A DNA stretch of 64,000 nt. Origin: Candidatus Latescibacterota bacterium. GTDB lineage: Bacteria; Latescibacterota; UBA2968; UBA8231. The DNA lies in the NCBI GenBank assembly GCA_965221775.1, contig CBDCSU010000004.1, forward strand, positions 224,001 to 288,000, given 5' to 3'. Shown here one piece after another: positions 5,840-50,644 of the stretch (positions within the stretch are counted from its first letter, which is position 1; each line of letters begins with the position of its first letter). The translations under genes and the position numbers were made by a program. The notes beneath the pieces are model-generated. The model searched no databases, was not told the origin of the DNA, and was given only the letters and a program-made list of their open reading frames with translations.

Positions 5840-6670
5840 TCAGGCCCCTCCCGCCGCCGCCATGCGCGGCTCCGCCAGGGAGCGCCAGTTGTCGTAGTAG
5901 CGGCGGGTGCGCTCAGGCAGGCCCGGACGCACGTTGTCGGCCAGCAGCCACCGCTGGTCGCCCTTCTCGCTCTCTTCGTACGCCGACCGGTGGTCGACGA
6001 GGGCGCCCATCAGGGTCGAGCGCTCCTTCATGCCCTCGGGCTTGCGTCCCCGGTGGATGGTGTTGCCGTTCCAGAAGATCGTCTGGCCCTTCTTCAGGTC
6101 GATCCGCAGGCCGCCGGGCAGCTCGCCCTGGCCGCCCTCCATCAGGCACTCCTTCTCCTCGTCCGTGCGGAAGCGCCGGTGGCTGCCCGGCACGATCCAC
6201 AGGCAGGGATCGTCGAGGAGGGCCATGTGCCACTTCACGAGGTGCTTCCGATGCCGGGCGAGGAGCGCCATCTCCTCCTCGTAGCCGGCGTTCCGGTCCT
6301 GGCCGCCCACGTCCCGGTGCCAGTGGCCCTTGTAGTCCCCGGCAATGGCGCACAGGTGCACCCATCCCAGGCGCAACTCGTGGCCCAGAAAGGGTCGGAC
6401 GCAGGCGGCCACCTCTTCCGAGCCCAGGTACGCGGCGAAGACCGGCTCGCCGAACTCCGGGGCCATGAGGCCGGTCACGAAGGCCGGCTCCGCGCCGGGC
6501 CCGCCGGTACCGAGCCCGTCCTCGTCGTCCACCACCTCTCCCGAGCGGATGCGGTCCACCACCCGGCGCGCCGCCGCCGCCAGTTCCTCCAGCATCGGCG
6601 GCTCCACCGCGTCGTCGGCGATGAAGTACCCCTCTTCGTGGTATTGCTCTATCTGTCTCTGGCCGGGCAT
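5840..6670 (-). CDS. PhyH family dioxygenase
   Basis: YHEEGYF start, WHRD, IVPGSHRR, TIHRG. Confidence 0.85.
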   Translation of the reverse strand: MPGQRQIEQYHEEGYFIADDAVEPPMLEELAAAARRVVDRIRSGEVVDDEDGLGTGGPGAEPAFVTGLMAPEFGEPVFAAYLGSEEVAACVRPFLGHELRLGWVHLCAIAGDYKGHWHRDVGGQDRNAGYEEEMALLARHRKHLVKWHMALLDDPCLWIVPGSHRRFRTDEEKECLMEGGQGELPGGLRIDLKKGQTIFWNGNTIHRGRKPEGMKERSTLMGALVDHRSAYEESEKGDQRWLLADNVRPGLPERTRRYYDNWRSLAEPRMAAAGGA

Positions 6671-6685
6671 TCCCTGCTTTCCTGG

Positions 6686-7798
6686 TCAGTCCCGTTTGTA
6701 GGCCGCCATCTGCTCCATGTACTCCTCCCGTCCCTGGGCCGCTTTCTTGCTGTACATGCGGCCGGCGTGAGGAAGGATCTTCATGCTTCGGTCCTCGAGG
6801 GGCAGAGCGACCGGCGCGTGCCCCTGCCGGTGGGACTCGCGCAGGGCGATGCCGATCTCCAGGCCCTTGCGCATGTTGTCGCCGCTGGTCCTCGGCTCGC
6901 GGCCGGTCTCCAGGGCCTCGACGATGGCCGCCACGCTCGACGCCAGGCGGTAGCTGACCTCGCGCCAGCCGTGCTCGTCGTACCCGAGGTCCCAGGTGCC
7001 GGCTCTCTCGAAGAGCCCCTCCCGCTCGCGCAGCACTCTGTCGTCTCCGTCGTCCTCGGCATCCTGGAACGAGAACTTCAGCCAGTCGCTGAGGAACACG
7101 CCCCTCTCGGTGAGCACCTCGATCCCCCGCCGGCCCACGGGGTCCATGTGGACGTGGGCGAGGATGCCGTTGGCGAAGCGGATGACGCCGCCCATGCCCT
7201 GGTCCTCCTCGTCCCAGGGGTCGCCGCGGACCCAGCCCGTGACCCACTCCACGTCGGCGTCGCCGGCCATGAGGCGGGTCACGCCCAGGCTCTGGCAGCC
7301 GCCGCCCAGGATCTCGTTGTGGGGGTGGTAGACATTGACGGCGCGCACCTCGCCGACCTCCCCCGAGTCGACCATCTCGCGGAACTGCGAGAACTGGGGA
7401 AGGTTGCGCCAGGCGTCGCCGCAGGCGAAAGGGATCCCCTTCGCGCGGCAGGTCTCGACCATGCGGTCGGCGTCGGCCAGGCTGGAGGCGATCGGCTTCT
7501 CCGAGAAGATCGCGCCCACGCCGGCCTCGGCGCAGTCGATCACGGCCCGGGGGTTGACGCTGACGGGCAGCACCGGCCCGGCGATGTCGAGACGCTCCTT
7601 CGCCAGCATCTCGCGGTAGTCGCTGTAGACCGCGACGCCGAAGCGACTCCGGAAGAGCTCCAGGTTCTCCGGGTCCGTGTCGGCGGCGGCCACCAGCTCG
7701 GTCTTCGGGTTGACCACGTAGGCCCGGGCGTGGTTGCTGCCCATGCGGCCGACGCCGATCAGGCCGACCCGGTACGGCGGTGTCCTCGATGCGCTCAT
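6686..7798 (-). CDS. Gfo/Idh/MocA family oxidoreductase
   Basis: GLIGVGRMG Rossmann motif, EKP motif. Confidence 0.9.
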   Translation of the reverse strand: MSASRTPPYRVGLIGVGRMGSNHARAYVVNPKTELVAAADTDPENLELFRSRFGVAVYSDYREMLAKERLDIAGPVLPVSVNPRAVIDCAEAGVGAIFSEKPIASSLADADRMVETCRAKGIPFACGDAWRNLPQFSQFREMVDSGEVGEVRAVNVYHPHNEILGGGCQSLGVTRLMAGDADVEWVTGWVRGDPWDEEDQGMGGVIRFANGILAHVHMDPVGRRGIEVLTERGVFLSDWLKFSFQDAEDDGDDRVLREREGLFERAGTWDLGYDEHGWREVSYRLASSVAAIVEALETGREPRTSGDNMRKGLEIGIALRESHRQGHAPVALPLEDRSMKILPHAGRMYSKKAAQGREEYMEQMAAYKRD

Positions 7799-38022: not shown

Positions 38023-39462
38023 CTACCACCCGAGGCGCTCCCGAAGGGGGATCGGACGGCCGGAGTCGTCGGAGAGCCGGGACGCCGGGGAGGAGACGCG
38101 CGTGAGGCGGCTTGCCGCCAGCAGCGCAGCGAGGGACGGGAGGACGGCGAGCAGGTCGGGGGGCCATCCGGGGGGAAGGGTGTACATGAAGAGCAGCCAG
38201 GAGGCGAATCCGGCGAGGATCGCGGCGAGGGACCCGACGGCGTTCGCTCCTTTCCACCAGATGCCGGCGGTCAGCGGCACGAAGAGGGTGGCGAGCAGGA
38301 CCGACCAGGAGTCGACCATCAGGTCGTAGACCGAGGTCCGATGCAGGGCCAGCAGGAGGGCGAACACCCCGAGGACGACGACGGAGAGACGGGAGGCCAG
38401 CAGGCAGGTCCTCTCCGTGACCTGGGGCCGCAGCGCCCGGAGCAGATCCCAGCCGATCACGCTCGAAGGCGCCAGCAGGGCGCTGTCGGCGCTGGACAAC
38501 AGAGCCGAGACCAGGGCGCCCATGAACAGCACCAGGGCCGCCGCGGGCAGGTACCGCTGGGCGATCTCCATCATCACCAGGTCGGGGTCGGCCAGGTCGG
38601 GGATGAGCACGGCGCCCGCCATGCCGAGCAGTACCGGCAGCAGACCGACGGTCAGGTAGATCAGCCCCGACAGGTAGGCGCTGCGCACGGCCACGCGGTC
38701 GTCACGACTCGACAGGCTGCGTTGGATCAGGTCCTGTCCGGCGAGGTTCCCGAGGCCGATGACCAGCCACTCGCGGGCATAGCCGAACCACTCGGTGGCG
38801 CCGGCTTCCCGGGGATAGAGGTGGAAGCGCTCCTCCGGGATCCGCGCGGCGATCGCCGCCCATCCCCCCATGTCGTGCAGGAGCAGAGGCGTGATCACGA
38901 CCATGCCGGCGATGAGCACGGCGAGCTGCACGAAATCGGTCAGGGTCACCGCCCACATGCCGCCGGCGAAGGTGTAGACCAGGACCACGGCGGCCCCCAC
39001 CAGGATGGCTACCGTGGGATCCAGCCCGGTCAGGGATTCCAGGATGACGCCGAAGGCGACCATGAGCGCCGCCACCCAACCCACGTAGGCCGGAACGGTG
39101 CACACGCTGGCCAGCAGGCCGGAGCGCACGTCGAAGCGGCGCGTGAAGAAGGAGGCCACGGTCATCACCCCGGCGCGGCGCAGGGCCCGGAGGTAGAAGG
39201 CCCCGGCCAGGAACAGGCACAACGCGGCGCCGAAGGGATCGGCGATGACGGCGAGAAAGCCGCCCTCGTAGGCGGCGCTGGCGGCGCCGATGCACAGGCC
39301 CCCGCCGAACCAAGTGGCCGACAGGGTCGCCGTGGCCAGCGGCAGGGACAGCCTGCGGCCGGCCACCAGGTAGTCGGCGGAGCTTGCGACGCGGCGGCTG
39401 GCGTAGATCCCGACGGCGAGCATCACCAGCAGGTACAGGCCAAGACCGGTCATCACGAACAT
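38023..39462 (-). CDS. Sodium:solute symporter (choline transporter-like)
   Basis: DYLVAGR, ATWFGGG, YT..GGMWAV..TDFVQ, QD..QR, SSADS. Confidence 0.9.
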   Translation of the reverse strand: MFVMTGLGLYLLVMLAVGIYASRRVASSADYLVAGRRLSLPLATATLSATWFGGGLCIGAASAAYEGGFLAVIADPFGAALCLFLAGAFYLRALRRAGVMTVASFFTRRFDVRSGLLASVCTVPAYVGWVAALMVAFGVILESLTGLDPTVAILVGAAVVLVYTFAGGMWAVTLTDFVQLAVLIAGMVVITPLLLHDMGGWAAIAARIPEERFHLYPREAGATEWFGYAREWLVIGLGNLAGQDLIQRSLSSRDDRVAVRSAYLSGLIYLTVGLLPVLLGMAGAVLIPDLADPDLVMMEIAQRYLPAAALVLFMGALVSALLSSADSALLAPSSVIGWDLLRALRPQVTERTCLLASRLSVVVLGVFALLLALHRTSVYDLMVDSWSVLLATLFVPLTAGIWWKGANAVGSLAAILAGFASWLLFMYTLPPGWPPDLLAVLPSLAALLAASRLTRVSSPASRLSDDSGRPIPLRERLGW

Positions 39463-39528
39463 GTCGGCATTATAAGAAAACCGGGGAAGCGGGCCGCAGG
39501 GCCCTCGGCTCCCCCTCGCGCGGTGACC

Positions 39529-39578
39529 GATGGCGGCCCCCGCCATCCACGGATGGCGGAGTTGGCGGTTCCCGCCGA
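39529..39578. promoter_or_regulatory. Palindromic upstream activating sequences for a sigma54 activator
   Basis: GATGGCGG-CCC-CCGCCATC (39529-39547) and TTGGCGG-TTC-CCGCCGA (39562-39578), 100-150 bp upstream of the -24 element. Confidence 0.6.
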
Positions 39579-39678
39579 TTCGCAACGTCACATGACTTTC
39601 CGTTCGTCTCCAGGCAGTACTTGATAAAAGATTGAAGGAGATAACGTTAGGATTCCATCAGAGCCTTCGTAGTGGTCC

Positions 39679-39694
39679 TGGCACCGCTCTTGCT
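39679..39694 (+). promoter_or_regulatory. Sigma54 (-24/-12) promoter of the pspA operon
   Basis: TGGCAC-CGCTC-TTGCT matches TGGCAC-N5-TTGCW; AT-rich tract (about 39620-39660) just upstream. Confidence 0.9.
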
Positions 39695-39784
39695 CAGCAG
39701 GGATGACAGGTCCCGGACCCCTCGGTGGAGGGGGGGGCACGGAAGGGTTAGTTTTCCACAACTTGGCTACGAGAGAGGCGAGCG

Positions 39785-40480
39785 ATGGCAAAGGGCATGT
39801 TCGCGCGCATGGCAGACATCCTGCGATCCAACATCAGCGAGGCCCTCGACCGCGCCGAAGAGCCCGAGAAGCTCATCCGGCAGATGATTCGCGAGATGGA
39901 GGAGGCGGTGAACAAGGCCACCGCCTCGGTGGGCACGGCGGTGGCCAACCAGAAGCGGCTCGAGCGTCAGCACGACGAGCGCGCCGCCCAGTGCGAGGAG
40001 TGGCAGCGGCGGGCCGAGCGCGCCGTCGAAGCCGGCGAGGACGACCTGGCCCGGCGCGCCCTCGAGCGCCGGGCGGTCCTGCAGCAGGCCGCCGCCGACC
40101 TGGCCCCGGCCCTGGAGGAGAGCCGCCGCACGGCAGAGCAGCTGCGCGAGCAACTCCGGGAGCTCAAGGGCAAGCTCGAGGAGGCCCGGACGCGTCAGGG
40201 GACCCTGATGGCCCGCCACCGGGCCGCCGAAGCCCGCAAGCGCCTGGCGCAGTCGATGCACGGCCTCGGAGACGACGCCTTCTCCAGCTTCGAGCGTTTC
40301 GAGCAGCGGGTGGAGGACACCGAGGCCGAAGCCGAGGCCCACGCCGAGGTCGCCGATGATCTGGGCGAGGTCGAGCGGCGGGTGCGGGACATGGACCGGT
40401 CGGCGGCGGTGGAAGATGAGTTGAAGGCCCTCAAGGACCGGCTCCTGCGCGAGCGCGAGCAGGCTTCGGGGAGCGCGTGA
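39785..40480 (+). CDS. pspA: Phage shock protein A (PspA/IM30, ESCRT-III superfamily)
   Basis: GMFARMADILRSNI...DRAEEPEKLIRQMIREME, AE.A...G.DDLAR.AL, FERFEQRV...EAEAEA, VEDEL.ALK. Confidence 0.95.
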   Translation: MAKGMFARMADILRSNISEALDRAEEPEKLIRQMIREMEEAVNKATASVGTAVANQKRLERQHDERAAQCEEWQRRAERAVEAGEDDLARRALERRAVLQQAAADLAPALEESRRTAEQLREQLRELKGKLEEARTRQGTLMARHRAAEARKRLAQSMHGLGDDAFSSFERFEQRVEDTEAEAEAHAEVADDLGEVERRVRDMDRSAAVEDELKALKDRLLREREQASGSA

Positions 40481-40484
40481 GGGA

Positions 40485-40955
40485 GTGAGACCGATGGGCA
40501 CCCCCTTGGAGGGATGGCTCCGACGCGCGGGATCCCTGCTGTTCAGGGCGGCGTCGGCCCTGCTCCTGTCGGTGGGCCTGGGGCTGATCCTCTACGGGAT
40601 GGGTCAGCGCATCGACCACGACGACTGGCAGGAGCCGCTGTCCATCGGGGTCCCCGTCTTCGCCCTCGGGGCCGCGGCCTGGTTCTGCTCCGGACGCCTC
40701 GCCGCCTCTGCCCGGCAGGCCCGCGCCCGGCGCATGGAGAACCGCATCCTGCGGCTGGCGCGAGAGCGCTTCGGCCGGCTCACGGTCATCGAGGCCGCCG
40801 TCGAGACCGGTCTCACCGCCGCCGAGACCGAGTCGATCCTTCGGGGCTTGGCCGATGGCGGATTCGTGGAGATCGAGGTCAACGAAGCCGGGGTCATGAG
40901 CTACCGTTTCCCCGAGGTCATCTACTCGTCGAGAGGCGAACGTTCCGCCTTGTGA
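40485..40955 (+). CDS. Psp-associated membrane protein, 2 TM plus C-terminal winged-helix-like domain
   Basis: Two hydrophobic segments, then ILRLA...GRLTV.EAA.ETGL...E...L..L...G...EVNE.G...YRFPE. Confidence 0.7.
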   Translation: MRPMGTPLEGWLRRAGSLLFRAASALLLSVGLGLILYGMGQRIDHDDWQEPLSIGVPVFALGAAAWFCSGRLAASARQARARRMENRILRLARERFGRLTVIEAAVETGLTAAETESILRGLADGGFVEIEVNEAGVMSYRFPEVIYSSRGERSAL

Positions 40956-40980
40956 GACAGCCCCGAAAGGACTGCGCCCC

Positions 40981-41337
40981 ATGAGGATTCCGACGATTTT
41001 CCACTGGCCCACGCCATGGTTCTGGGTCGGCCTGACGATATTGCTGCTTGGTCTGGTGGGGGATTCTCCGGCCATGGCGGTCGCCGCCGTGATCGTCCTC
41101 GCCGCAAGCGTGGCCCACGTCGCCAGGGGCAAGGCCGCCCGGCCGCGCCCCGAGGGCCACTGGGACGACGCGAGAGTCGGAGAGCCCCCGGGGCTGGACC
41201 AGCGCCTCACCGAGATCGAGCGGCGTCTCACGGACACGCAGGACGTGATGATCGCCCTGAGCGAGAAGATGGACCGCTGGGAGCGGGAGGGGATGTCCCC
41301 GGCCCCGGCTGGGGCCGCCGACAGGGGGACGGAGTAG
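40981..41337 (+). CDS. Psp-associated small membrane protein with C-terminal coiled coil
   Basis: Two TM segments; LDQRLTEIERRLTDTQDVMIALSEKMDRWE. Confidence 0.75.
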   Translation: MRIPTIFHWPTPWFWVGLTILLLGLVGDSPAMAVAAVIVLAASVAHVARGKAARPRPEGHWDDARVGEPPGLDQRLTEIERRLTDTQDVMIALSEKMDRWEREGMSPAPAGAADRGTE

Positions 41338-41701
41338 AGATGCTCGTCAGGATCTTCGCCGGGGCCCTCCTGCTTCTGGGCGCGGCCTCTGCCGTCAGCT
41401 TTCTCGTGGGAGCCTTCCCCGTCATCCTCCTCCCCTGGGACGGATTCCATGGCCCCCCTGGGGGGTTCGGAGTCTCGGGCTGGTTCGGTGATGCCCTCGG
41501 GGCCATCGTGCTGGTCACGCTCTTCGGCGTCCTGCTCAATGGGGGTTACTGGATCCACGTCCATCTGGAAGACCGCAGAGCCCGCACGAAGGGCGCGCTG
41601 CCCGAAGGGGACGTGGCCCGGCGGCTGGACGAGCTCGAGGCCCGCACCCGGGACGTCCTCGACGTGATGATCGCCTTGAGCGAGAAGATGGACCGCTGGG
41701 A
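41242..41701 (+). repeat. 41-bp direct repeat (41242-41282 and 41661-41701), 40/41 identical
   Basis: GACGTGATGATCGCC(C/T)TGAGCGAGAAGATGGACCGCTGGGA encodes DVMIALSEKMDRW in two adjacent genes. Confidence 0.95.
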
Positions 41702-41747
41702 ACGGCAAGGCGCGCCCGCCGCCGCCGACCGCACCCCCGGGAATTGA
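41340..41747 (+). CDS. Psp-associated small membrane protein with C-terminal coiled coil
   Basis: ATG 41340 just after the upstream stop; MLVRIFAG..., 2 TM; RRLDELEARTRDVLDVMIALSEKMDRWE. Confidence 0.75.
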   Translation: MLVRIFAGALLLLGAASAVSFLVGAFPVILLPWDGFHGPPGGFGVSGWFGDALGAIVLVTLFGVLLNGGYWIHVHLEDRRARTKGALPEGDVARRLDELEARTRDVLDVMIALSEKMDRWERQGAPAAADRTPGN

Positions 41748-41761
41748 GGAGGAGCGCGATC

Positions 41762-41908
41762 ATGCTTGTCAGAATACTCGGCGCCGCCCTGCTGGCCGTG
41801 GGCGTCGTCCTCGCCCTGGACATGCTGCTGGGGGTGCTCTGGTCGATCCTCTCGGTGGCCTTCGTCGCCGTCCTCCTCTGGGGCGGATGGAGACTGCTGA
41901 AGTCGTGA
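41762..41908 (+). CDS. 48-aa membrane microprotein (below ORF-track cutoff)
   Basis: GAGGAGGAG RBS; MLVRILGAALLAVGVVLALDMLLGVLWSILSVAFVAVLLWGGWRLLKS; stop overlaps kinase GTG. Confidence 0.75.
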   Translation: MLVRILGAALLAVGVVLALDMLLGVLWSILSVAFVAVLLWGGWRLLKS

Positions 41909-43326
41909 CCTCCGCGGCCTCGGCCGGCCAGCGGGCCCTTCTGGAAGAGGGTCGCCGGCTCTTCCGCCAGGGCCGTCACCCCGAGGCCCGCCAGATCCTC
42001 CAGCGGGCCCTGGAGCCCTCCTCGGAGCAGGCCCCCGGGAACGGTGCCGCCGAGATGCTCTTCCTGCGGGGGATGTGCCACCTGCAGGAGGGCGCCGAGG
42101 CCGACGGCGTGGAGGACCTGGAAGCGGCCGCCGGCCAGGGCTGGCTGGAGGCTCGGTTCCAGCTCGCCCAGCACTACGCGGCCAAGGGCCGACGCGGCGA
42201 TCTGCGCCGGCGGGCCATCTCCCACCTCCGGCAGGTCCTGGCGGCCGACGCCGACGATCCCAGCCTCGCCGCCGGCCGCGACCGTGTCTGCTTCGCCCTG
42301 GGCGGCCTCTACGCCGAAGGCGACGAGCCCGGCGACGTCGACCGCGGCATCGCCGCCTACCGCCAGGGCCTCTCCGTCAACCCCCTCTCCGCCGTCGGGC
42401 ACAACAGCCTGGGACAGCTCCTGATGCGCTTCGAGCCCCTCGGCGCCCTCGGCGAGTTCAAGGTGGCCCTGCAGCTGGACCCGGACCTCCGGGCCGCCTG
42501 CGGCAACCTCGCCCGCCTCCTGGTCGAGCGCATCCCCCCGCGGGAGCTGGCCGCCGAGTACGCCCGCATCGTCGAGGAGTTCGAGGAGCGGGCCCCCCAC
42601 GTGCTCGCCCGCCTGTCCCAGGAGCTGGTGGAGCTGGGGCGCGAGCAGGCCTATCGCGGCCTGTACACCAAGGGCCACCAGCTGAAGAACCTGATCGGCC
42701 TCGTGGGCAGCCGGCTGCGTCGGCTGACCCGCAAGCTGCCTTGCGAGGACGGCGCGGCCGCGGAGCTGCGCCAGGTCGAGCAGGAGCACGCCCGCCTTTA
42801 CGATGAATGGGTGGGCTATCTGTCGGCCATGACCCCCGACCGGGTCGTCACCGGCCTGGTCGATCCCGCCCGGGTCGCCCGCCGGGTGGTGGAAGCCCTC
42901 GGCGCCGACACGCAGGTCGCGTTGGGAATGCGGGTGCAGGAGGGAGTGCCGCGGATCGAGGCGGACGAGCGCCTGCTCCGGGAGGCGGTGACCAACCTGT
43001 GCCTCAATGCCATACAGGCCGTCTCGGGGGAGGCCTTGCCGGGGGAGGTCTCCGTCGGCGTCGGTTTCGACGTCCACGGGGTGTTCATCGAGGTGGAGGA
43101 TTCCGGGCCGGGCATCCCCGCCGACGTGATCGACCACGTCTTCGATCCGGGGTTCACCACCCGGAGCCAGGGCAACGGCTACGGTCTCGCCATCGCCCAG
43201 CGGATCGCCCAGGCCCACCACGGCGACCTCCGGGTCAAGAGCCGCGTCGGCCGAGGCACCGTGTTCCGCCTCGACCTGCCGGTCAACTACGAAGCCGAGA
43301 GCCGGGTCGGCGGGGAGGTTCTGTGA
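41905..43326 (+). CDS. Soluble TPR-repeat sensor histidine kinase
   Basis: N-terminal TPR-like repeats, H-box GHQLKN, N-box NLCLNA, EDSGPGI, FDPGFTT, GNGYGL; no TM segment. Confidence 0.88.
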   Translation: MTSAASAGQRALLEEGRRLFRQGRHPEARQILQRALEPSSEQAPGNGAAEMLFLRGMCHLQEGAEADGVEDLEAAAGQGWLEARFQLAQHYAAKGRRGDLRRRAISHLRQVLAADADDPSLAAGRDRVCFALGGLYAEGDEPGDVDRGIAAYRQGLSVNPLSAVGHNSLGQLLMRFEPLGALGEFKVALQLDPDLRAACGNLARLLVERIPPRELAAEYARIVEEFEERAPHVLARLSQELVELGREQAYRGLYTKGHQLKNLIGLVGSRLRRLTRKLPCEDGAAAELRQVEQEHARLYDEWVGYLSAMTPDRVVTGLVDPARVARRVVEALGADTQVALGMRVQEGVPRIEADERLLREAVTNLCLNAIQAVSGEALPGEVSVGVGFDVHGVFIEVEDSGPGIPADVIDHVFDPGFTTRSQGNGYGLAIAQRIAQAHHGDLRVKSRVGRGTVFRLDLPVNYEAESRVGGEVL

Positions 43327-44747
43327 GCGAGCGGGGCCGCGTCCTCATCGCCGACGATCAGCCGGAGGTGCGCGAGTTGCTGGCCGAGAAGCTGCGGGCC
43401 CGGGGCAAGGAGGCCGAGGTCTTCCACACGGGGAGGGAGTTGCTCGACCACCTGGCCGCCCATGGCGAAGGGGTGGAGCTGGCCGTTCTCGACCTCGACT
43501 TCGGCGCTGCCGAGCCCGATGGCCTGGCGGTCCTCAAGCGGGTGAGGCGGCTCTGCCCGGAGCTGCCGGTGATCATCCTCACGGGCAAAGGGTCCGTCGA
43601 CTCCGCCGTTGCCGCCGTGCAGGAGGGCGCCGCCGACTACATCGAGAAGGACCTCTACGTGGAGGACAAACTCGAGCTCGGCATGGAGAAGGTCGAGCGC
43701 ATGCTCCATGTGCTGCAGGAGAACGCGCGGCTGCGGGCGGAGAACGAAACCCTCGACCGCGACAACCTCTACTACCGCTCGGAGCTGGGAGCCCGCTACC
43801 ACATCGTCCAGGCCAGCGGCCGCGTGGAGCAGATCCTGCGGCAGGTCCAGCAGGTGGCCTCCATCCCGCGGCCCGTTCTCGTGCGGGGAGAGCGGGGGAC
43901 GGGCAAGGAGCTGATCGCCGCGGCCCTGCACTACGGGGGCAGCCGCGCCGAGCGGCCCTTCGTCAAGCTGAACTGCTCGGCCCTCTCCGAGACCCTGCTC
44001 GAGTCGGAGCTCTTCGGCCACGAGCGGGGGGCCTTCACCGGCGCCGGCGACACCCGTCGGGGGCGTTTCGAGACCGCCGACGGCGGTACCCTGTTCCTCG
44101 ACGAGATCGGCAACACCAGCCTCGAGTTCCAGAAGATCCTGCTGCGCGTCATCGAGTACCAGGAGTTCGAGCGCATCGGCGGCTCCCGCACGATCCGCGT
44201 GGACGTGCGCATCGTGGCAGCCACCAACGCCGACCTCGAGAGCGAGATCGAGGCGGGCCGCTTCCGCGCCGATCTCTACGACCGCCTGCGGTTCACCGAG
44301 ATCTCCCTGCCGCCCCTGCGCGACCGGCGCGAGGACATCCGCCCCCTGGTGGCGTTCTTCTCCCACCAGCTGTCCGAGGAAGTCGCCTCGATCCCGGAGC
44401 GCCCCTTCGACGAGCCCAGCCTGGCGGTCCTGGAGTCCTATGCCTGGCCGGGCAACGTGCGGGAGCTGAAGTTCGCCGTGGAACGAGCCCTGTGCGTGGC
44501 CCGGGAGGACCGGGTGACGGTCTCCGACCTGCCGCCCGAGATCGTCGGCGAAAGCGGATCCGCCCTCATCGGGAGGGCGCGCCTGCCCGGGACCTTCGAC
44601 GAGCAGATGGCCGCCGTCGAGAGAGGCCTGCTGCTCGCCGCCCTCGAGCGCAGCGGCCACAGCCAGAAGGACGCCGCGGCCTCCCTCGACCTGACCTACG
44701 ACCGTTTCCGCCACCTCCTGCGCAAGCACGGACTCACCCGGGCGTGA
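43323..44747 (+). CDS. Sigma54-dependent response regulator: REC + PspF-like AAA+ + HTH
   Basis: REC (IADD, LDLD, LTG, IEK); GERGTGKE, GAFTGA, LLRVIEY, FRADLYDRL; C-terminal LDLTYDRFRHLLRKHG. Confidence 0.93.
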   Translation: MSERGRVLIADDQPEVRELLAEKLRARGKEAEVFHTGRELLDHLAAHGEGVELAVLDLDFGAAEPDGLAVLKRVRRLCPELPVIILTGKGSVDSAVAAVQEGAADYIEKDLYVEDKLELGMEKVERMLHVLQENARLRAENETLDRDNLYYRSELGARYHIVQASGRVEQILRQVQQVASIPRPVLVRGERGTGKELIAAALHYGGSRAERPFVKLNCSALSETLLESELFGHERGAFTGAGDTRRGRFETADGGTLFLDEIGNTSLEFQKILLRVIEYQEFERIGGSRTIRVDVRIVAATNADLESEIEAGRFRADLYDRLRFTEISLPPLRDRREDIRPLVAFFSHQLSEEVASIPERPFDEPSLAVLESYAWPGNVRELKFAVERALCVAREDRVTVSDLPPEIVGESGSALIGRARLPGTFDEQMAAVERGLLLAALERSGHSQKDAAASLDLTYDRFRHLLRKHGLTRA

Positions 44748-44894
44748 TCGTCCATCCGGCCGAGTGAGGGCCGACCCGACGCGGGGCGTTCTCCACGATT
44801 CGGACGCCCGGCGGGGCTCCCACCTTGACGCGGGTCCCCCTCACGCCTTCTTAGCGGGGTTCCCGCCGCAGCGCCTCCAACCGCGTAGAAGGCG

Positions 44895-45212
44895 ATGATG
44901 GAGAAGCAGTTCAAGGTCGAGACCTTCCTCGGCGGCGACCTGGCCGAGCTCTACGAGGCCGTCATGGAGCAGTTCGAGGCCTCCGGCTTCTCGAGCCTCT
45001 CCGAGATGAACCAGGCGCTGCTGCGCACCGGGCTGCTGCTGCACCTGACGATGCTGACCTCCATGGGTGCGGTCGCCGACGAGCAGCGGCGGCTCCGGTT
45101 GGAGGAACTGGCCGAGAAGGTGGGCCGGGAGAACCTGATGTGGGAGGTGGTGGAGCTGGCCCGGCGCCACTGGAAGGAGGGGGGGGCCGGCAGTATCGAC
45201 CTGCAGGCCTGA
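44895..45212 (+). CDS. Hypothetical protein, possibly ribbon-helix-helix-like
   Basis: Typical codon usage; N-terminal strand-helix-GFSSLSE-helix pattern. Confidence 0.6.
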   Translation: MMEKQFKVETFLGGDLAELYEAVMEQFEASGFSSLSEMNQALLRTGLLLHLTMLTSMGAVADEQRRLRLEELAEKVGRENLMWEVVELARRHWKEGGAGSIDLQA

Positions 45213-45328: not shown

Positions 45329-45712
45329 ATGGGAATGTACTCCGTGTCGGAAGCCTACAACGAGACCGTCCTCGACCACTACCGGAACCCCCGGAATGTG
45401 GGCGTTCTCAAAGACGCCAATGCCGTCGGCAAAGCGGAGAATTCGGCTTGCGGAGACGTTCTCCACCTCTACTTGGCCATCGACGGAGGCCGGGTGGTCG
45501 ACTCGCGCTTCCAGACCTTCGGATGCGCGGCCGCCATCGCCGCCGGCTCGAGGCTGACCGAGATGGTCACCGGCGCCACCCTCGACGAGGTACGGGCCAT
45601 CCGCCGGCGAGACGTGGTCGAAGCCCTCGGCGGACTTCCGCCGATGAAGGTCCATTGCTCGGTTCTGGCCGAGGACGCCCTTCGCGACGCACTCGAAGCG
45701 TACGAGCACTGA
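45329..45712 (+). CDS. iscU: Fe-S cluster scaffold IscU/NifU-N
   Basis: DHYRNPRNVG, ACGD, FGC..AIA, LPPMKVHC. Confidence 0.92.
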   Translation: MGMYSVSEAYNETVLDHYRNPRNVGVLKDANAVGKAENSACGDVLHLYLAIDGGRVVDSRFQTFGCAAAIAAGSRLTEMVTGATLDEVRAIRRRDVVEALGGLPPMKVHCSVLAEDALRDALEAYEH

Positions 45713-45760: not shown

Positions 45761-46375
<615 letters not shown>

Positions 46376-46957: not shown

Positions 46958-48403
46958 ATGCGCGCTGAAGGGACAGGCCGCCCCTTGGCGGCTCCCGCAG
47001 AGGTCCACGACTCGACCTCTCTGGCCGGTACCCGGCTCCCCGGACAGGGCTGCGCCGACACGTCGGCCCTTGCCACTGCTCTCGACGAGTCTCACCGCGA
47101 CCTCCTCGACGGGGAGTTCTGGCGCACGATCCCCGCCTACGCCGGTCTGGGTGCTGACGAGTTCCACGATCACCGGTTCCAGAGCCGGAACTGCGTCTCC
47201 AGCCTCCAGAAGCTGCGTCAGGTTCTGCGCGGCCTCGTCTCCGAGGCGTTCTACGCCGATGTCGAAGCGGGTCTGCGCAGATCGACGATGAGCCTGCGCA
47301 TCTCGCCGTACTTGATGTCTCTGGTCGACTGGTCGGCGCCTGACGTCGATCCGATCCGCATCCAGTTCCTGCCTCTCGGCTCGCGGCATGAGGCCGATCA
47401 CCCGGAGCTGGCCCTCGACTCCCTCAACGAACAGGCCGATTCACCCGTGCCCGGGCTCACGCACCGGTACCACGACCGGGCCCTGTTCCTGGCCCTGGAC
47501 ACCTGTCCCGTGTACTGCCGCTTCTGCACCCGTTCCTACTCGGTGGGCCTCGACACCGCCGGCGTTGACAAGGTCCACTTCGGGGTCAGCCGCGAGCGCT
47601 GGGAGCAGGCCTTCGACTACATCCGCCGCACTCCCGCCATCGAGGACGTGGTCGTCAGCGGCGGCGACATGTACAACCTCAAGGCCGAGCAGGTCGAGTT
47701 GCTGGGCAGAACCCTCCTCGACATCGAGCACGTACGCAGGTTCCGCTACGCCACCAAGGGCCCGGCGGTGATGCCGCAAAAGCTGGTCACCGATCCCGAC
47801 TGGGTGCGCGCACTTGCCGAGGTCGGCGCCGAGGGCCGCCGCCGCCACAAGGAGGTGGCCCTGCACACGCACTTCAACCACCCCGCCGAGATCACCGCCT
47901 TCACCCGCCGCGCCATGGAAGGGCTGATGGCGCAGGGCATGGTCGTCCGCAACCAGACGGTGCTGCAGCGCGGGGTGAACGACGACGCCGACACCATGCA
48001 GCTCCTGGTCCGGCGCCTGGGCTATCTGAACATCCATCCCTACTACGTCTTTCTGCACGACATGGTCCGCGGCGTCGAAGAGTTGCGCACGAGTCTGCGG
48101 ACCGCCATCGATATCGAGAAGCAGGTACGCGGCGTCACCGCGGGTTTCAACCTTCCCGCCTTCGTTCTCGACACCATGGGGGGCGGGGGCAAGCGCGACG
48201 TCCACTCCTACGAGCGCTACGACCAGGAGACCGGCATCTCCGTCTTCACCAGTCCCGTGGTGAGGCCGGGGCAGCGGTTCCTGTTCTTCGACCCGCTGCA
48301 CAGCCTCGGGCCGAATGCGCGCGCGCTCTGGTCCGATCCCGACTCCAGGGCCGGCATGATCGCCGAGGCCCTGCAGGACCAGGCCGCAGGAGCCAGATCC
48401 TGA
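46958..48403 (+). CDS. KamA-family radical SAM/PLP 2,3-aminomutase
   Basis: PGLTHRY, CPVYCRFCTR, SGGD, HFNHP, NQTVL.RGVND, PYY, GGGGK; exact start uncertain. Confidence 0.9.
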   Translation: MRAEGTGRPLAAPAEVHDSTSLAGTRLPGQGCADTSALATALDESHRDLLDGEFWRTIPAYAGLGADEFHDHRFQSRNCVSSLQKLRQVLRGLVSEAFYADVEAGLRRSTMSLRISPYLMSLVDWSAPDVDPIRIQFLPLGSRHEADHPELALDSLNEQADSPVPGLTHRYHDRALFLALDTCPVYCRFCTRSYSVGLDTAGVDKVHFGVSRERWEQAFDYIRRTPAIEDVVVSGGDMYNLKAEQVELLGRTLLDIEHVRRFRYATKGPAVMPQKLVTDPDWVRALAEVGAEGRRRHKEVALHTHFNHPAEITAFTRRAMEGLMAQGMVVRNQTVLQRGVNDDADTMQLLVRRLGYLNIHPYYVFLHDMVRGVEELRTSLRTAIDIEKQVRGVTAGFNLPAFVLDTMGGGGKRDVHSYERYDQETGISVFTSPVVRPGQRFLFFDPLHSLGPNARALWSDPDSRAGMIAEALQDQAAGARS

Positions 48404-48487
48404 CGATGGGAGCCTGCCAGGCAGGTTTCCAGGGTGGAGAAGGGCCCCGCGAGGGCGCCTGCTCCCGGAAACGGAAGTGACGACAAA

Positions 48488-50188
48488 ATGGACCCAAAGG
48501 CAGTCACTCTGCCCGCCGACCTGTGGCTGGCCGTCCTCTGCGGCCTCGGGTTGCTGCTGGTGGGCGTCGGCATCGGGTATCTCATCAGCCTCTATCTGCG
48601 GAGGCCCGATCAGAACCGTCTGGAGGAGGAAGCCGAGGCCAGGGCCGTGCGCCGCCTCGCCGAGCAGGAGCGCGCCCAGCGTCTGACATTTCTCGAGGAG
48701 AAGGACGGCTGGTACAAGCTGAAGGCCGATCAGGAGAACCAGTTGGAGACGGCCCTCGAAGAGCAGGGCCGCCGGGAGAAGGACCTGGCCACCCGGGAGC
48801 GGGAGATCGACACCCGGCGGCAGGAGGTGCGCAAGGAGTGGAGCCGCTTCAAGAACCAGGAGCGGCGCCTCAACTCGAGGGAGCGCAGCCTCCGGTCCAG
48901 CGAGGTGGAGATCGAGTCGCTGCAGCGGGAGTACCGGGAGAAACTGGAGCTCGCGGCCAATCTCACCGAGGACGAGGCCAAGGAGCAGCTCCTCGAGCAC
49001 CTGTCCGGCAAGGTGCGGGCCCGGGCGGCGGCCATGATTCGGGCCGAGAGAACGCGGGCCCGGGAGGAGGCGGACCGGGAGGCGCGCAAGATCGTCGCCC
49101 AGGCTATTCAGCGCTGCGCCGTGGAGGAAGCGGAGCAGGCGGCCACCTCCACACTGACGATCCCCAGTGAGAGCCTCAAGAGTCGGATCATCGGCAAGGA
49201 GGGCCGCAACGTGCGCGCCTTCGAGAACGCCACGGGCGTCAAGGTCGTGGTCGACGACACGCCCGACACGGTGTTGCTCTCCTCCTTCGATCCCCTTCGC
49301 CGCGAGGTGGCGGCGCGCTCGATGGAGCGCCTGGTTCGCGAGGGCGGGTTCACCCCCAACCGGATCGAGGAGGTGGTGGCCGAGGCCCGCCGCCTCGTCG
49401 ACAAGGAGATGGAGGAAGCGGGTCACCGCGCCCTCGGCAAGATCGGGGCGAGCGACTATCACGCGGATCTGCCCGCTGCGGTGGGGCGGCTCAAGTTCCG
49501 CTCCAGCTACGGACAGAACCAGCTCCAGCACTGCCTGGAGGTGGGACAGCTCGCGGGGCTCATGGCCCAGGAGATCGGCCTCGACGCCACTCTCGCCCGG
49601 AGGGCCGGGCTGCTGCACGACATCGGCAAGACCGTGAGCCGGGAGATGGAGGGCTCGCACATCGAGCTCGGAGTGGAGATGGCGGAGCGCTTCGAAGAGC
49701 ACCCGGTGGTACGCGAGGTCATCGCCGAGAGCCACGAGGATCACGAGCGCGTCGATCCGATCTGCTTCCTGGTGAAGGCCGCCGACGCCATCTCCTCGGT
49801 CCGCCCGGGAGGCCGCCGGGAGGACTTCGAGGGCTACGCGCGCCGGATCATGAAGCTGGAGGAGATCGCCACTTCCTTCGAGGGGGTGAAGGACGTCTAC
49901 GCCATCAACGCCGGACGCGAGATCCGCGTCATGGTGCGCGGCGAGCAGGTGAGCGACGACGACGCCGAAATCCTGGCCTTCCACATCGCCGAGCGCGTGA
50001 AGAACGAGCTGACCTTCGCCGGCGAGGTGAAGGTGATGGTCGTCCGCGAGACCCGCGCCGCCCGGAGCACCAGCCTGCGGCCCCGCGGACCACGAGGCGG
50101 CAACGCGAGGTCGAGGCGCCGGGCCCGCGATCCCTCCCCCCGCAACGGACGGCATGCTCGCAACGGACAGCCCCGGCCCGGCGGGTAG
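48488..50188 (+). CDS. rny: Ribonuclease Y (divergent)
   Basis: N-terminal TM, coiled coil, KH (RIIGKEGRNVR), SYGQN, LLHDIGK, AINAGREIRV. Confidence 0.9.
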   Translation: MDPKAVTLPADLWLAVLCGLGLLLVGVGIGYLISLYLRRPDQNRLEEEAEARAVRRLAEQERAQRLTFLEEKDGWYKLKADQENQLETALEEQGRREKDLATREREIDTRRQEVRKEWSRFKNQERRLNSRERSLRSSEVEIESLQREYREKLELAANLTEDEAKEQLLEHLSGKVRARAAAMIRAERTRAREEADREARKIVAQAIQRCAVEEAEQAATSTLTIPSESLKSRIIGKEGRNVRAFENATGVKVVVDDTPDTVLLSSFDPLRREVAARSMERLVREGGFTPNRIEEVVAEARRLVDKEMEEAGHRALGKIGASDYHADLPAAVGRLKFRSSYGQNQLQHCLEVGQLAGLMAQEIGLDATLARRAGLLHDIGKTVSREMEGSHIELGVEMAERFEEHPVVREVIAESHEDHERVDPICFLVKAADAISSVRPGGRREDFEGYARRIMKLEEIATSFEGVKDVYAINAGREIRVMVRGEQVSDDDAEILAFHIAERVKNELTFAGEVKVMVVRETRAARSTSLRPRGPRGGNARSRRRARDPSPRNGRHARNGQPRPGG

Positions 50189-50203
50189 AGCCCCGGGGTC
50201 TTC

Positions 50204-50644
50204 TTGGCGACGGTGAGCAAGAGGGGCTACGGACTCTTCGCCGGCCTTTGGCGGACGATCGGCCGCCTGGCGTCCAGACGGACTCCTGTGGCCGGACGCA
50301 CGTCGGCCTGCGCCACGCCCCTCAGAGGGACTCCGCGCTTGCGCCAACGCTCCGACGGACGCCCCCGGTGCGTCGCCTGCGCCCTTTGCGCCGCCGCCTG
50401 CCCGTCGGACTGCATTCGCATCGAAGCCTCCGCGCCGCCCTGGGTGGAGGAGGCCGACGTGCCGGCCACCAGTGAACGCTGGCCCGCCGTCTTCGAGCTC
50501 GATCTGGGGCGCTGCCTGCTGTGCGGTCTGTGCGAATCGGCCTGCCCCGAGGAGGCCATCTCCCTCGACCCGCAGGGCCCCGAGCCGGTGGCCGCTGAGC
50601 GCGCGTCTCTTCGTCTGGGGCGCGATGCCCTCCTGCGGCGGTGA
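50204..50644 (+). CDS. NuoI-like 2[4Fe-4S] ferredoxin
   Basis: RG..RL, CVACALCAAACP, FELDLGRCLLCGLCESACPEEAI; start uncertain (TTG 50204 or GTG 50213). Confidence 0.8.
   Translation: MATVSKRGYGLFAGLWRTIGRLASRRTPVAGRTSACATPLRGTPRLRQRSDGRPRCVACALCAAACPSDCIRIEASAPPWVEEADVPATSERWPAVFELDLGRCLLCGLCESACPEEAISLDPQGPEPVAAERASLRLGRDALLRR

Follow-up and report, generated by a model that had tools for sequence, protein, structure and literature searches.

Psp/IM30/ESCRT-III systems are nearly universal and, to our knowledge, their regulation is understood in three model lineages only. In the enterobacterial system, as found in E. coli K-12 with pspF divergent from pspABCDE, a sigma54 promoter and upstream activator sites precede pspA, small membrane proteins are encoded after it, and the activator PspF, which has no N-terminal regulatory domain, is controlled in trans by PspA. 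The binding of PspA depends on Trp56 of PspF and is abolished by the exchange W56A, according to the available parts of PMC3128695. Here we analyse a stretch of 64,000 nucleotides (hereafter the window) from Candidatus Latescibacterota bacterium (assembly GCA_965221775.1, contig CBDCSU010000004.1, positions 224,001 to 288,000), in which positions 39,529 to 44,747 hold a pspA operon that also encodes a soluble histidine kinase with TPR repeats and a PspF-like regulator fused to a receiver.

The operon resembles the E. coli system in the sigma54 promoter and upstream sites before pspA, in a PspA effector with 38% identity to that of E. coli, in an activator of the same AAA+ lineage and in the small membrane proteins that follow pspA. 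It differs from it in that the activator has a receiver and a coiled-coil linker and is encoded at the end of the operon rather than divergently, that Trp56 is absent, that a soluble TPR kinase is present, and that the PspB, PspC and PspD families were not detected. In the Firmicute LiaIH-GFSR system, too, a PspA homolog with small membrane partners stands under a two-component system encoded in or next to the operon. In Lia, however, the kinase is a membrane protein, the regulator is of the LuxR/NarL type, the promoter depends on sigmaA and LiaF takes part (partly general knowledge, partly from the available text of PMC11237479), whereas here we find a soluble kinase, a sigma54 enhancer-binding protein (EBP) as regulator and no LiaF or LiaI family match, so that we do not count the locus among Lia systems. 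An earlier, sequence-only reading of this DNA had called the arrangement a hybrid of Psp and Lia; this was overstated, since nothing in it is Lia-specific beyond its being a two-component system.

A third point of reference is ZraPSR of E. coli, in which a kinase and an NtrC-type regulator likewise drive the sigma54 promoter of an envelope-stress effector. There, however, the kinase ZraS is a membrane protein, the effector ZraP is periplasmic and unrelated to PspA, and ZraR lies outside the clade of PspF and the present regulator in the tree described below. ZraP exerts feedback on signalling, and its database record names it a 'signaling pathway modulator'.

Several variations on psp gene neighbourhoods are on record. 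The available text of Ravi et al. 2024 (PMC11237479) describes NtrC-like regulators with extra N-terminal ACT or PAS domains beside psp genes, REC-HTH two-component systems beside pspA or pspC, the PspA partner domains PspAA and PspAB, and flotillin neighbours; PspF of Desulfovibrio is a single-component regulator in the parts available of Kazakov et al. 2015 (PMC4641369). No mention of a REC-fused PspF or a TPR kinase was found in the available text of Ravi et al. 2024, whose supplements and web app may list such a context, and the system is not described in the accessible portions of Popp et al. 2022 (PMC9239133), Huvet et al. 2010 (PMC3041696) and Kazakov et al. 2015. A search of the searchable full-text literature, with the supplements of PMC11237479 and PMC9239133 outside its scope, likewise gave no report in which a REC-fused PspF is combined with a TPR kinase, in agreement with the sequence-only reading, which knew of none. 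A PspF-lineage activator with a receiver and a soluble TPR kinase is apparently an undescribed variation on the well-known Psp system.

The operon and its PspF-lineage regulator

We consider it probable, from the sequence comparisons that follow, that the operon encodes an autoregulated Psp-type membrane-stress system whose transcription is under a two-component pair. The system is real, conserved and lineage-restricted, and the PspF lineage supplies the basis of its two-component front end. All comparative tests made here agree with the regulatory logic that we propose, which is thus well supported on comparative grounds. Its seven co-directional open reading frames (ORFs), with intergenic gaps of 4, 25, 5, -4, -22 and -4 bp, are the following (TM, transmembrane).

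39785..40480, + strand: pspA, 231 aa; PspA/IM30 (ESCRT-III superfamily) effector, PF04012 at 1.6e-45
40485..40955, + strand: g2, 156 aa; 2TM protein with a winged-helix domain in the cytoplasm, not in a curated family
40981..41337, + strand: g3, 118 aa; membrane protein whose cytoplasmic helix at the C-terminus (T-tail) is conserved
41343..41747, + strand: g4, 134 aa; g3 paralog with more TM segments and the T-tail in common
41744..41908, + strand: g5, 54 aa as ORF, probable start at 41762; small 2TM hairpin protein
41887..43326, + strand: soluble histidine kinase, 479 aa; TPR repeats at the N-terminus, DHp (His264 invariant), HATPase_c
43323..44747, + strand: response regulator, 474 aa; REC, coiled-coil linker, PspF-clade AAA+ (GAFTGA), Fis-type helix-turn-helix (HTH)

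The PspA protein belongs to the family PF04012, which it matches with 155.9 bits (cut-off 33.9) over positions 2-217 of 220, while staying below the NCBIfam PspA equivalog cut-offs (155.7 vs 242.95). An ortholog with at least 61% identity was found in 30 of 41 genomes searched, the own genome included, with identities of 61-98% in the relatives. From these 30 genomes, 20 loci of 11 kb each were fetched, long contigs being preferred; with the own locus they make up the 21 loci referred to below, which represent three families of one class. The submitters' labels for these metagenome-assembled genomes are Gemmatimonadaceae, Gemmatimonadetes or Candidatus Latescibacterota. The genes for PspA, g2, the kinase and the regulator were colinear in all 20 fetched loci, across the three families. 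T-type matches were obtained by tblastn in 19 of them, and the twentieth has T-like motifs by eye. In families f2 and f4, an insert of 3.4-5 kb lies between the small membrane genes and the kinase gene (L029 4493-7384, with equivalents in L030-L036 and L040-L042) and codes for an extracytoplasmic function (ECF) sigma factor, an unknown protein of 230 aa and a protein of 534 aa that resembles SPFH/flotillin. Even across these inserts, the linkage of kinase and regulator to pspA, which had been set beforehand as the neighbourhood check on the sequence-only reading, is kept in each fetched locus. One relative, L039 (G021:C35), has in-frame TAG and TAA codons in pspA, g2 and pspA2, the pspA gene of a second locus (see below), and its kinase and regulator matches are fragmented; this could reflect assembly errors, decay of the system or something else.

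The regulator carries the domains Response_reg (PF00072, 1.2e-17), Sigma54_activat (PF00158, 1.3e-65), an AAA lid and HTH_8, and with its GAFTGA motif and Fis-type HTH it has the domain content of PspF. Its identity to E. coli PspF is 48% over 312 aa, HTH included, and an E. coli PspF query finds it as the best of the 15 EBPs of its own genome (254 bits vs 228 for the next). For the AAA+ domain, the identity to E. coli PspF is 53% (241 bits), the other 14 own EBPs reaching at most 214 bits, and the domain is nearer to E. coli PspF than to AtoC, ZraR, NorR, NtrC, GlrR or RtcR of E. coli. A maximum-likelihood tree built from 31 AAA+ domains, sampled from seven E. coli EBPs, the 15 own EBPs and orthologs of the regulator, places E. 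coli PspF as sister to ten regulators with a support of 100/99. The solved structure of PspF is matched with 250 bits over 222 residues. The regulator remains under the NCBIfam PspF equivalog cut-off (TIGR02974; 351.8 vs 443.55 bits).

The receiver is intact, with the acidic pocket, phospho-acceptor Asp, Thr and Lys expected of an NtrC-type response regulator (D11, D12, D57/D59, T87 and K109) conserved in at least 90% of rows. The claim of a receiver-fused PspF thus holds good, given this receiver and the place of the AAA+ domain in the PspF clade. In two respects the protein departs from what defines PspF itself: it possesses an N-terminal regulatory domain, and the residue through which PspA exerts control is gone, the position equivalent to Trp56 being occupied by Ala, Arg or Lys in 12 of 12 orthologs. 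This bears on the possibility that the classical feedback is kept, that is, that PspA binds to the regulator's AAA+ domain and inhibits it in the E. coli manner, and that receiver and kinase do no more than add a second, unrelated input. The membership of the AAA+ domain in the PspF clade and the similarity of the two PspA proteins would fit such a scheme, as would the co-evolution of pspA and pspF reported in the available parts of PMC3041696. But Trp is never found at the position whose exchange abolishes PspA binding in E. coli, and the score of a modelled complex with the kinase's TPR domain depended on PspA (see below), so that we regard retention of the classical feedback as unlikely.

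The kinase has no hydrophobic segment (maximum KD19 1.18) and, as had been proposed, is thus a cytoplasmic TPR kinase: TPR matches lie at its N-terminus, HATPase_c is found at 9.4e-25, and His264 in the H-box KGHQLKNL is invariant in 12 of 12 orthologs, as are the N, G1, F and G2 boxes, which identifies the protein as a histidine kinase. The NtrB model aligns to residues 241-466, and Pfam HisKA gave no match at E <= 0.01. Kinase and regulator genes have 4 bp in common.

Promoter elements and a second pspA locus

Upstream of pspA, three elements were located.

39529..39547, no strand assigned: upstream activator site 1 (predicted), GATGGCGGCCCCCGCCATC = GATGGCGG-ccc-CCGCCATC; palindrome with the core TGGCG-N5-CGCCA at 39531-39545
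39563..39577, no strand assigned: upstream activator site 2 (predicted), TGGCGGttcCCGCCG; 32 bp from site 1, with TGGCGGTTCCCGCC at 39563-39576
39679..39693, + strand: sigma54 -24/-12 element TGGCAC-N5-TTGC, TGGCACcgctcTTGC; exact match, 92 bp before the pspA start

With at most one mismatch, the sigma54 element recurs 67-139 bp upstream of pspA in 20 of the 21 loci; the exception, L030, has a candidate with two mismatches. Sites of the form TGGCAY-N5-TTGC number 20 on both strands of the 5.36-Mb genome, in which rpoN is present. It is this position, conservation and genome-wide rarity that lend weight to the element. Site 1 is situated about 165 bp upstream of the predicted start site, and the spacer between the upstream sites and the sigma54 element is AT-richer. 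The 15-mer TGGCG-N5-CGCCA, allowing two mismatches, was found in 21 of 21 pspA upstream regions (shuffle means 0.03-0.53), and 14 of these have at least two palindromic sites, spaced by 21-22 or 31-32 bp. Together with the gaps between the genes, the exact -24/-12 element and the two palindromic sites bear out the earlier description of seven co-directional, tightly packed genes with upstream activator palindromes and a sigma54 promoter. The upstream neighbour of the operon is a divergently oriented sodium:solute symporter gene. Since alignments of the symporter to relatives start mostly near residue 43-46 of its ORF, its real start is probably the Met at about 39462, which would make the palindromes intergenic.

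A second pspA locus lies outside the window (G000:C5, about 47505-50215; L057 4506-7215, - strand), with pspA2 at about 50073. Its order is palindrome, sigma54 element, pspA2 (PF04012 at 1.1e-31) and two genes for T-tail proteins. One of these is a 122-aa membrane protein with a GxxGxHRFYxG-type N-terminal membrane module; the other is a long protein whose start resembles a signal peptide and which has a large extracytoplasmic region, a single TM segment and the T-tail. Four of the 20 genome-wide promoter motifs have a palindrome with at most one mismatch 40-260 bp upstream, and an exact palindrome is found only at pspA2 and at pspA of the operon (pspA1). The pspA2 promoter is present, with at most one mismatch, in all 18 loci that have a pspA2 match, and lies 56-89 bp upstream in 17 of them; the pspA2 search gave no match in two f3 loci. 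In one relative (L027, about 6650-6960), pspA2 is located directly 3' of the regulator gene, after three exact TGGCGATCAGCGCCA copies with 50 bp spacing and a sigma54 element.

Given that the genome encodes 15 EBPs and that other genes part the kinase-regulator pair from pspA in f2 and f4, one might suppose that the pair is merely a neighbour which regulates other genes, while another EBP serves the pspA promoter. Its linkage to pspA in 20 of 20 loci of three families despite insertions, the PspF lineage of the regulator and the restriction of the exact combination of palindrome and promoter to the two pspA loci all argue against this, and we regard it as very improbable. As a side aspect, with just 20 TGGCAY-N5-TTGC sites in 5.36 Mb against 15 sigma54 activators, a map of the full sigma54 regulon of this genome looks tractable.

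Small membrane proteins and flanking genes

The proteins g3 and g4 are paralogs that differ in their membrane parts and have in common a strongly conserved C-terminal helix, the T-tail, with the consensus RLTDIQDVMIALSEKxDRW. A hidden Markov model of the T-tail gave exactly four matches among the 72,970 six-frame segments of the genome, all of them beside pspA1 or pspA2. In a large protein collection the T family has 552 members at E <= 0.001; none of the best 120 of these matches has a Pfam domain, and the names given to them are 'hypothetical protein'. The protein g5 likely starts at the Met at 41762 and belongs to a family of about 50-aa 2TM hairpins ('MLAKILG...GYRLLKS') that occurs in all lineages examined. 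Clusters in a protein atlas carry automatic labels only, namely 'hypothetical protein' and TPR kinase.

The gene g2, which adjoins pspA, codes for two hydrophobic segments and a C-terminal winged helix. Its AlphaFold model (mean predicted local distance difference test score, pLDDT, 78.9) has the topology a1-b1-a2-a3-b2-b3, with three helices and three strands. Foldseek returned generic winged-helix matches only, at E of about 1e-2 (TFE-alpha, MarR, ArsR and the ESCRT-II structure 3cuq_A, the latter with a root-mean-square deviation of 1.6 over 60 columns), so that no specific fold relative can be named. Of 168 genomes searched in the phylum, 101 contain a match to the g2 profile, among them 49 of 75 in family f1, 30 of 31 in f2 and 21 of 22 in f4, as against 0 of 39 genomes of the other eleven families. 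Scans for wider loci of the g2 family yielded only 12 close loci from genome contigs and one 1,435-bp locus from metagenomes. The protein stands within a large unannotated family (2,242 representatives at E <= 0.001) whose members are about 150 aa long and combine two TM helices with a winged helix at the C-terminus; fusions to TMEM43-like, zinc-ribbon or cyclase domains occur in some of them.

The sequence-only reading had counted four novel membrane partners. Four unannotated membrane proteins are indeed present; they make up three families rather than four, because g3 and g4 are paralogs. It had also seen no recognisable pspB, pspC or Lia-type partners, which our searches confirm: neither Pfam nor NCBIfam gave a match of g2-g5 to PspB, PspC or Lia-type families (LiaF and LiaI included), no genome among 168 of the phylum had a PspB match over the cut-off, and PspC had 0 matches in the own genome. 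Could g3 and g4 be very divergent PspB proteins, in a classical PspABC-type set to which a kinase was added? The layout is the same, with an N-terminal TM segment followed by a cytoplasmic helix, and one of 15 members of the T-tail family does match Pfam PspB (E = 0.022). Yet hhalign gave the family a probability of only 1.3% against E. coli PspB, and neither the 168 genomes, with no PspB over the cut-off, nor the best 120 T-family matches, with no Pfam domain among them, lend themselves to this idea. We rejected PspB as an identification of the T-tail and consider a divergent PspB quite improbable.

On the 3' side of the operon, the window holds a 105-aa ORF without a family match (44895-45212), followed by the ORFs 45329-45712 and 45761-46375, which were judged IscU-like and superoxide dismutase, respectively, from their translations and not by family search. 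This trio is syntenic 3' of the regulator gene in 7 of 9 f1 loci and is not found in f2. In f1 it is complete in L023, L024, L026, L037, L038 and L039; L028 is without the 105-aa ORF, L025 has only the 105-aa ORF, and L027 has none of the three.

Contigs from RNA libraries (four runs of two studies) match parts of the operon at 95-100% identity, though such contigs cannot show transcription, strand or ends. Some of them span the junctions pspA/g2, g2/g3, g3/g4 and kinase/regulator, which again is no proof of transcription, and two bins upstream of pspA are not covered by them, which proves nothing. A scan of 39300-45200 for sigma70-type promoters and terminators, which is uninformative for this phylum, found none but one sub-chance hairpin inside the regulator gene.

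Signal input and the proposed circuit

Since the kinase is devoid of sensor domains for membranes or small molecules and only its TPR repeats could act as a sensor, its input must come from a protein that contacts these repeats. As ligand, the sequence-only reading had suggested PspA or the coiled-coil tails of the accessory proteins. We predicted the complex of the kinase's TPR domain (residues 1-240), PspA and the g3 tail as three chains, with alignments of our own. The TPR-PspA prediction scored 0.47, whereas the best of three controls scored 0.00; in the control in which PspA was replaced and the T-tail was kept, the score was likewise 0.00. Between runs, at least 56% of the contacts agree, with a partner pLDDT of no less than 84. 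In the calibration, whose counts hold only roughly for three chains and alignments of our own, 58 of 80 solved complexes reached the mark for the score, as did 2 of 110 mismatched pairs; at scores of 0.60 or below, only 7 of the 80 solved complexes and both passing mismatches did so. Against this stands that, by the same calibration, a score of this class errs more often than not, except where the guess was likely beforehand. The prediction thus weakly favours PspA over the T-tail, and of the two ligands suggested earlier it is PspA that gains some weak support (0.47 vs 0.00), while the tail with PspA replaced does not (0.00).

TPR domains commonly bind short helices, and the TPR kinase may instead be controlled by the membrane partners, with the T-tail helices or the g2 winged helix, and not PspA, acting as transmitters in the manner of PspB/PspC or LiaF. 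Across families, no other stretch of the small proteins is as well conserved as the T-tail, which is fused to varied membrane or periplasmic modules, among them a protein with a long extracytoplasmic domain. Against this stands the score of 0.00 with the T-tail kept and PspA replaced, which is a matter of model confidence only, such that binding would still be possible. Furthermore, pspA2 has T-tail proteins beside it and no kinase gene next to it, which suits an anchor of PspA better than a ligand of the kinase. Control by the membrane partners is, in our estimation, a doubtful although not negligible possibility, and feedback from PspA to the TPR domain remains our leading, if weakly supported, idea of the sensing mechanism.

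We propose the following circuit. RNA polymerase with sigma54 would occupy the -24/-12 element at 39679, and the regulator encoded by the last gene, a PspF-lineage EBP that has gained an N-terminal receiver and a coiled-coil linker, would bind the two TGGCG-N5-CGCCA palindromes about 135-165 bp upstream. Phosphorylation of the regulator by the soluble TPR kinase would then lead to opening of the promoter, and the transcript would encode the PspA effector, the four small membrane proteins, the kinase and the regulator. Since the operon encodes its own kinase and regulator, induction would raise its own signalling proteins, which amounts to positive autoregulation. The same regulator probably also drives the second pspA locus. 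The best candidate for the TPR ligand is PspA: free PspA would hold the kinase off, and when PspA is drawn away, towards damaged membrane or towards T-tail or winged-helix anchors, the kinase would be released. The classical feedback of PspA would thereby be shifted from the AAA+ domain to the kinase.

Several observations weigh against this circuit or restrict its reach. The sigma54 element is the sole match with at most one mismatch in the 64-kb window, where shuffling gives a mean of 2.62, and is by itself within chance for one window. The palindromes of f2 are strongly divergent (TGGTC...CGCCA, two mismatches), so that no single motif covers every lineage. The kinase-regulator pair of f2 and f4 lies behind the insert, with gaps of 226-232 bp, and is there probably transcribed apart from the small genes, so that positive autoregulation may not hold in these families. 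Fourteen other EBPs in the genome could serve the promoter, and the loss of Trp56 does not exclude that PspA binds the AAA+ domain via another surface.

A more far-reaching version of the proposal, which we put forward tentatively and think rather unlikely as a whole, is that PspA, a membrane remodeller of the ESCRT-III type, is the direct ligand of the TPR kinase, such that free PspA is sensed, that the T-tail of about 30 residues is a portable and hitherto unrecognised PspA-docking motif, and that g2, tethered to the membrane, is an ESCRT-II-like nucleator. If this were true, the cell would gauge free PspA via a two-component system and not via direct inhibition of PspF, and the T-tail would be a docking motif carried by diverse membrane and periplasmic-sensor proteins. 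Even though the hosts are uncultured, direct tests in E. coli and in vitro are feasible, because all the parts are small and either soluble or peptide-sized.

Irrespective of the ligand, three unannotated protein families tied to pspA emerge from this locus, namely the T-tail proteins, the 2TM winged-helix proteins and the small 2TM hairpins, and any of them could be a membrane anchor or a sensor for PspA. In this system a member of the PspF lineage has turned into a response regulator and has lost the residue for contact with PspA; it may therefore serve as a natural experiment in the rewiring of effector feedback.

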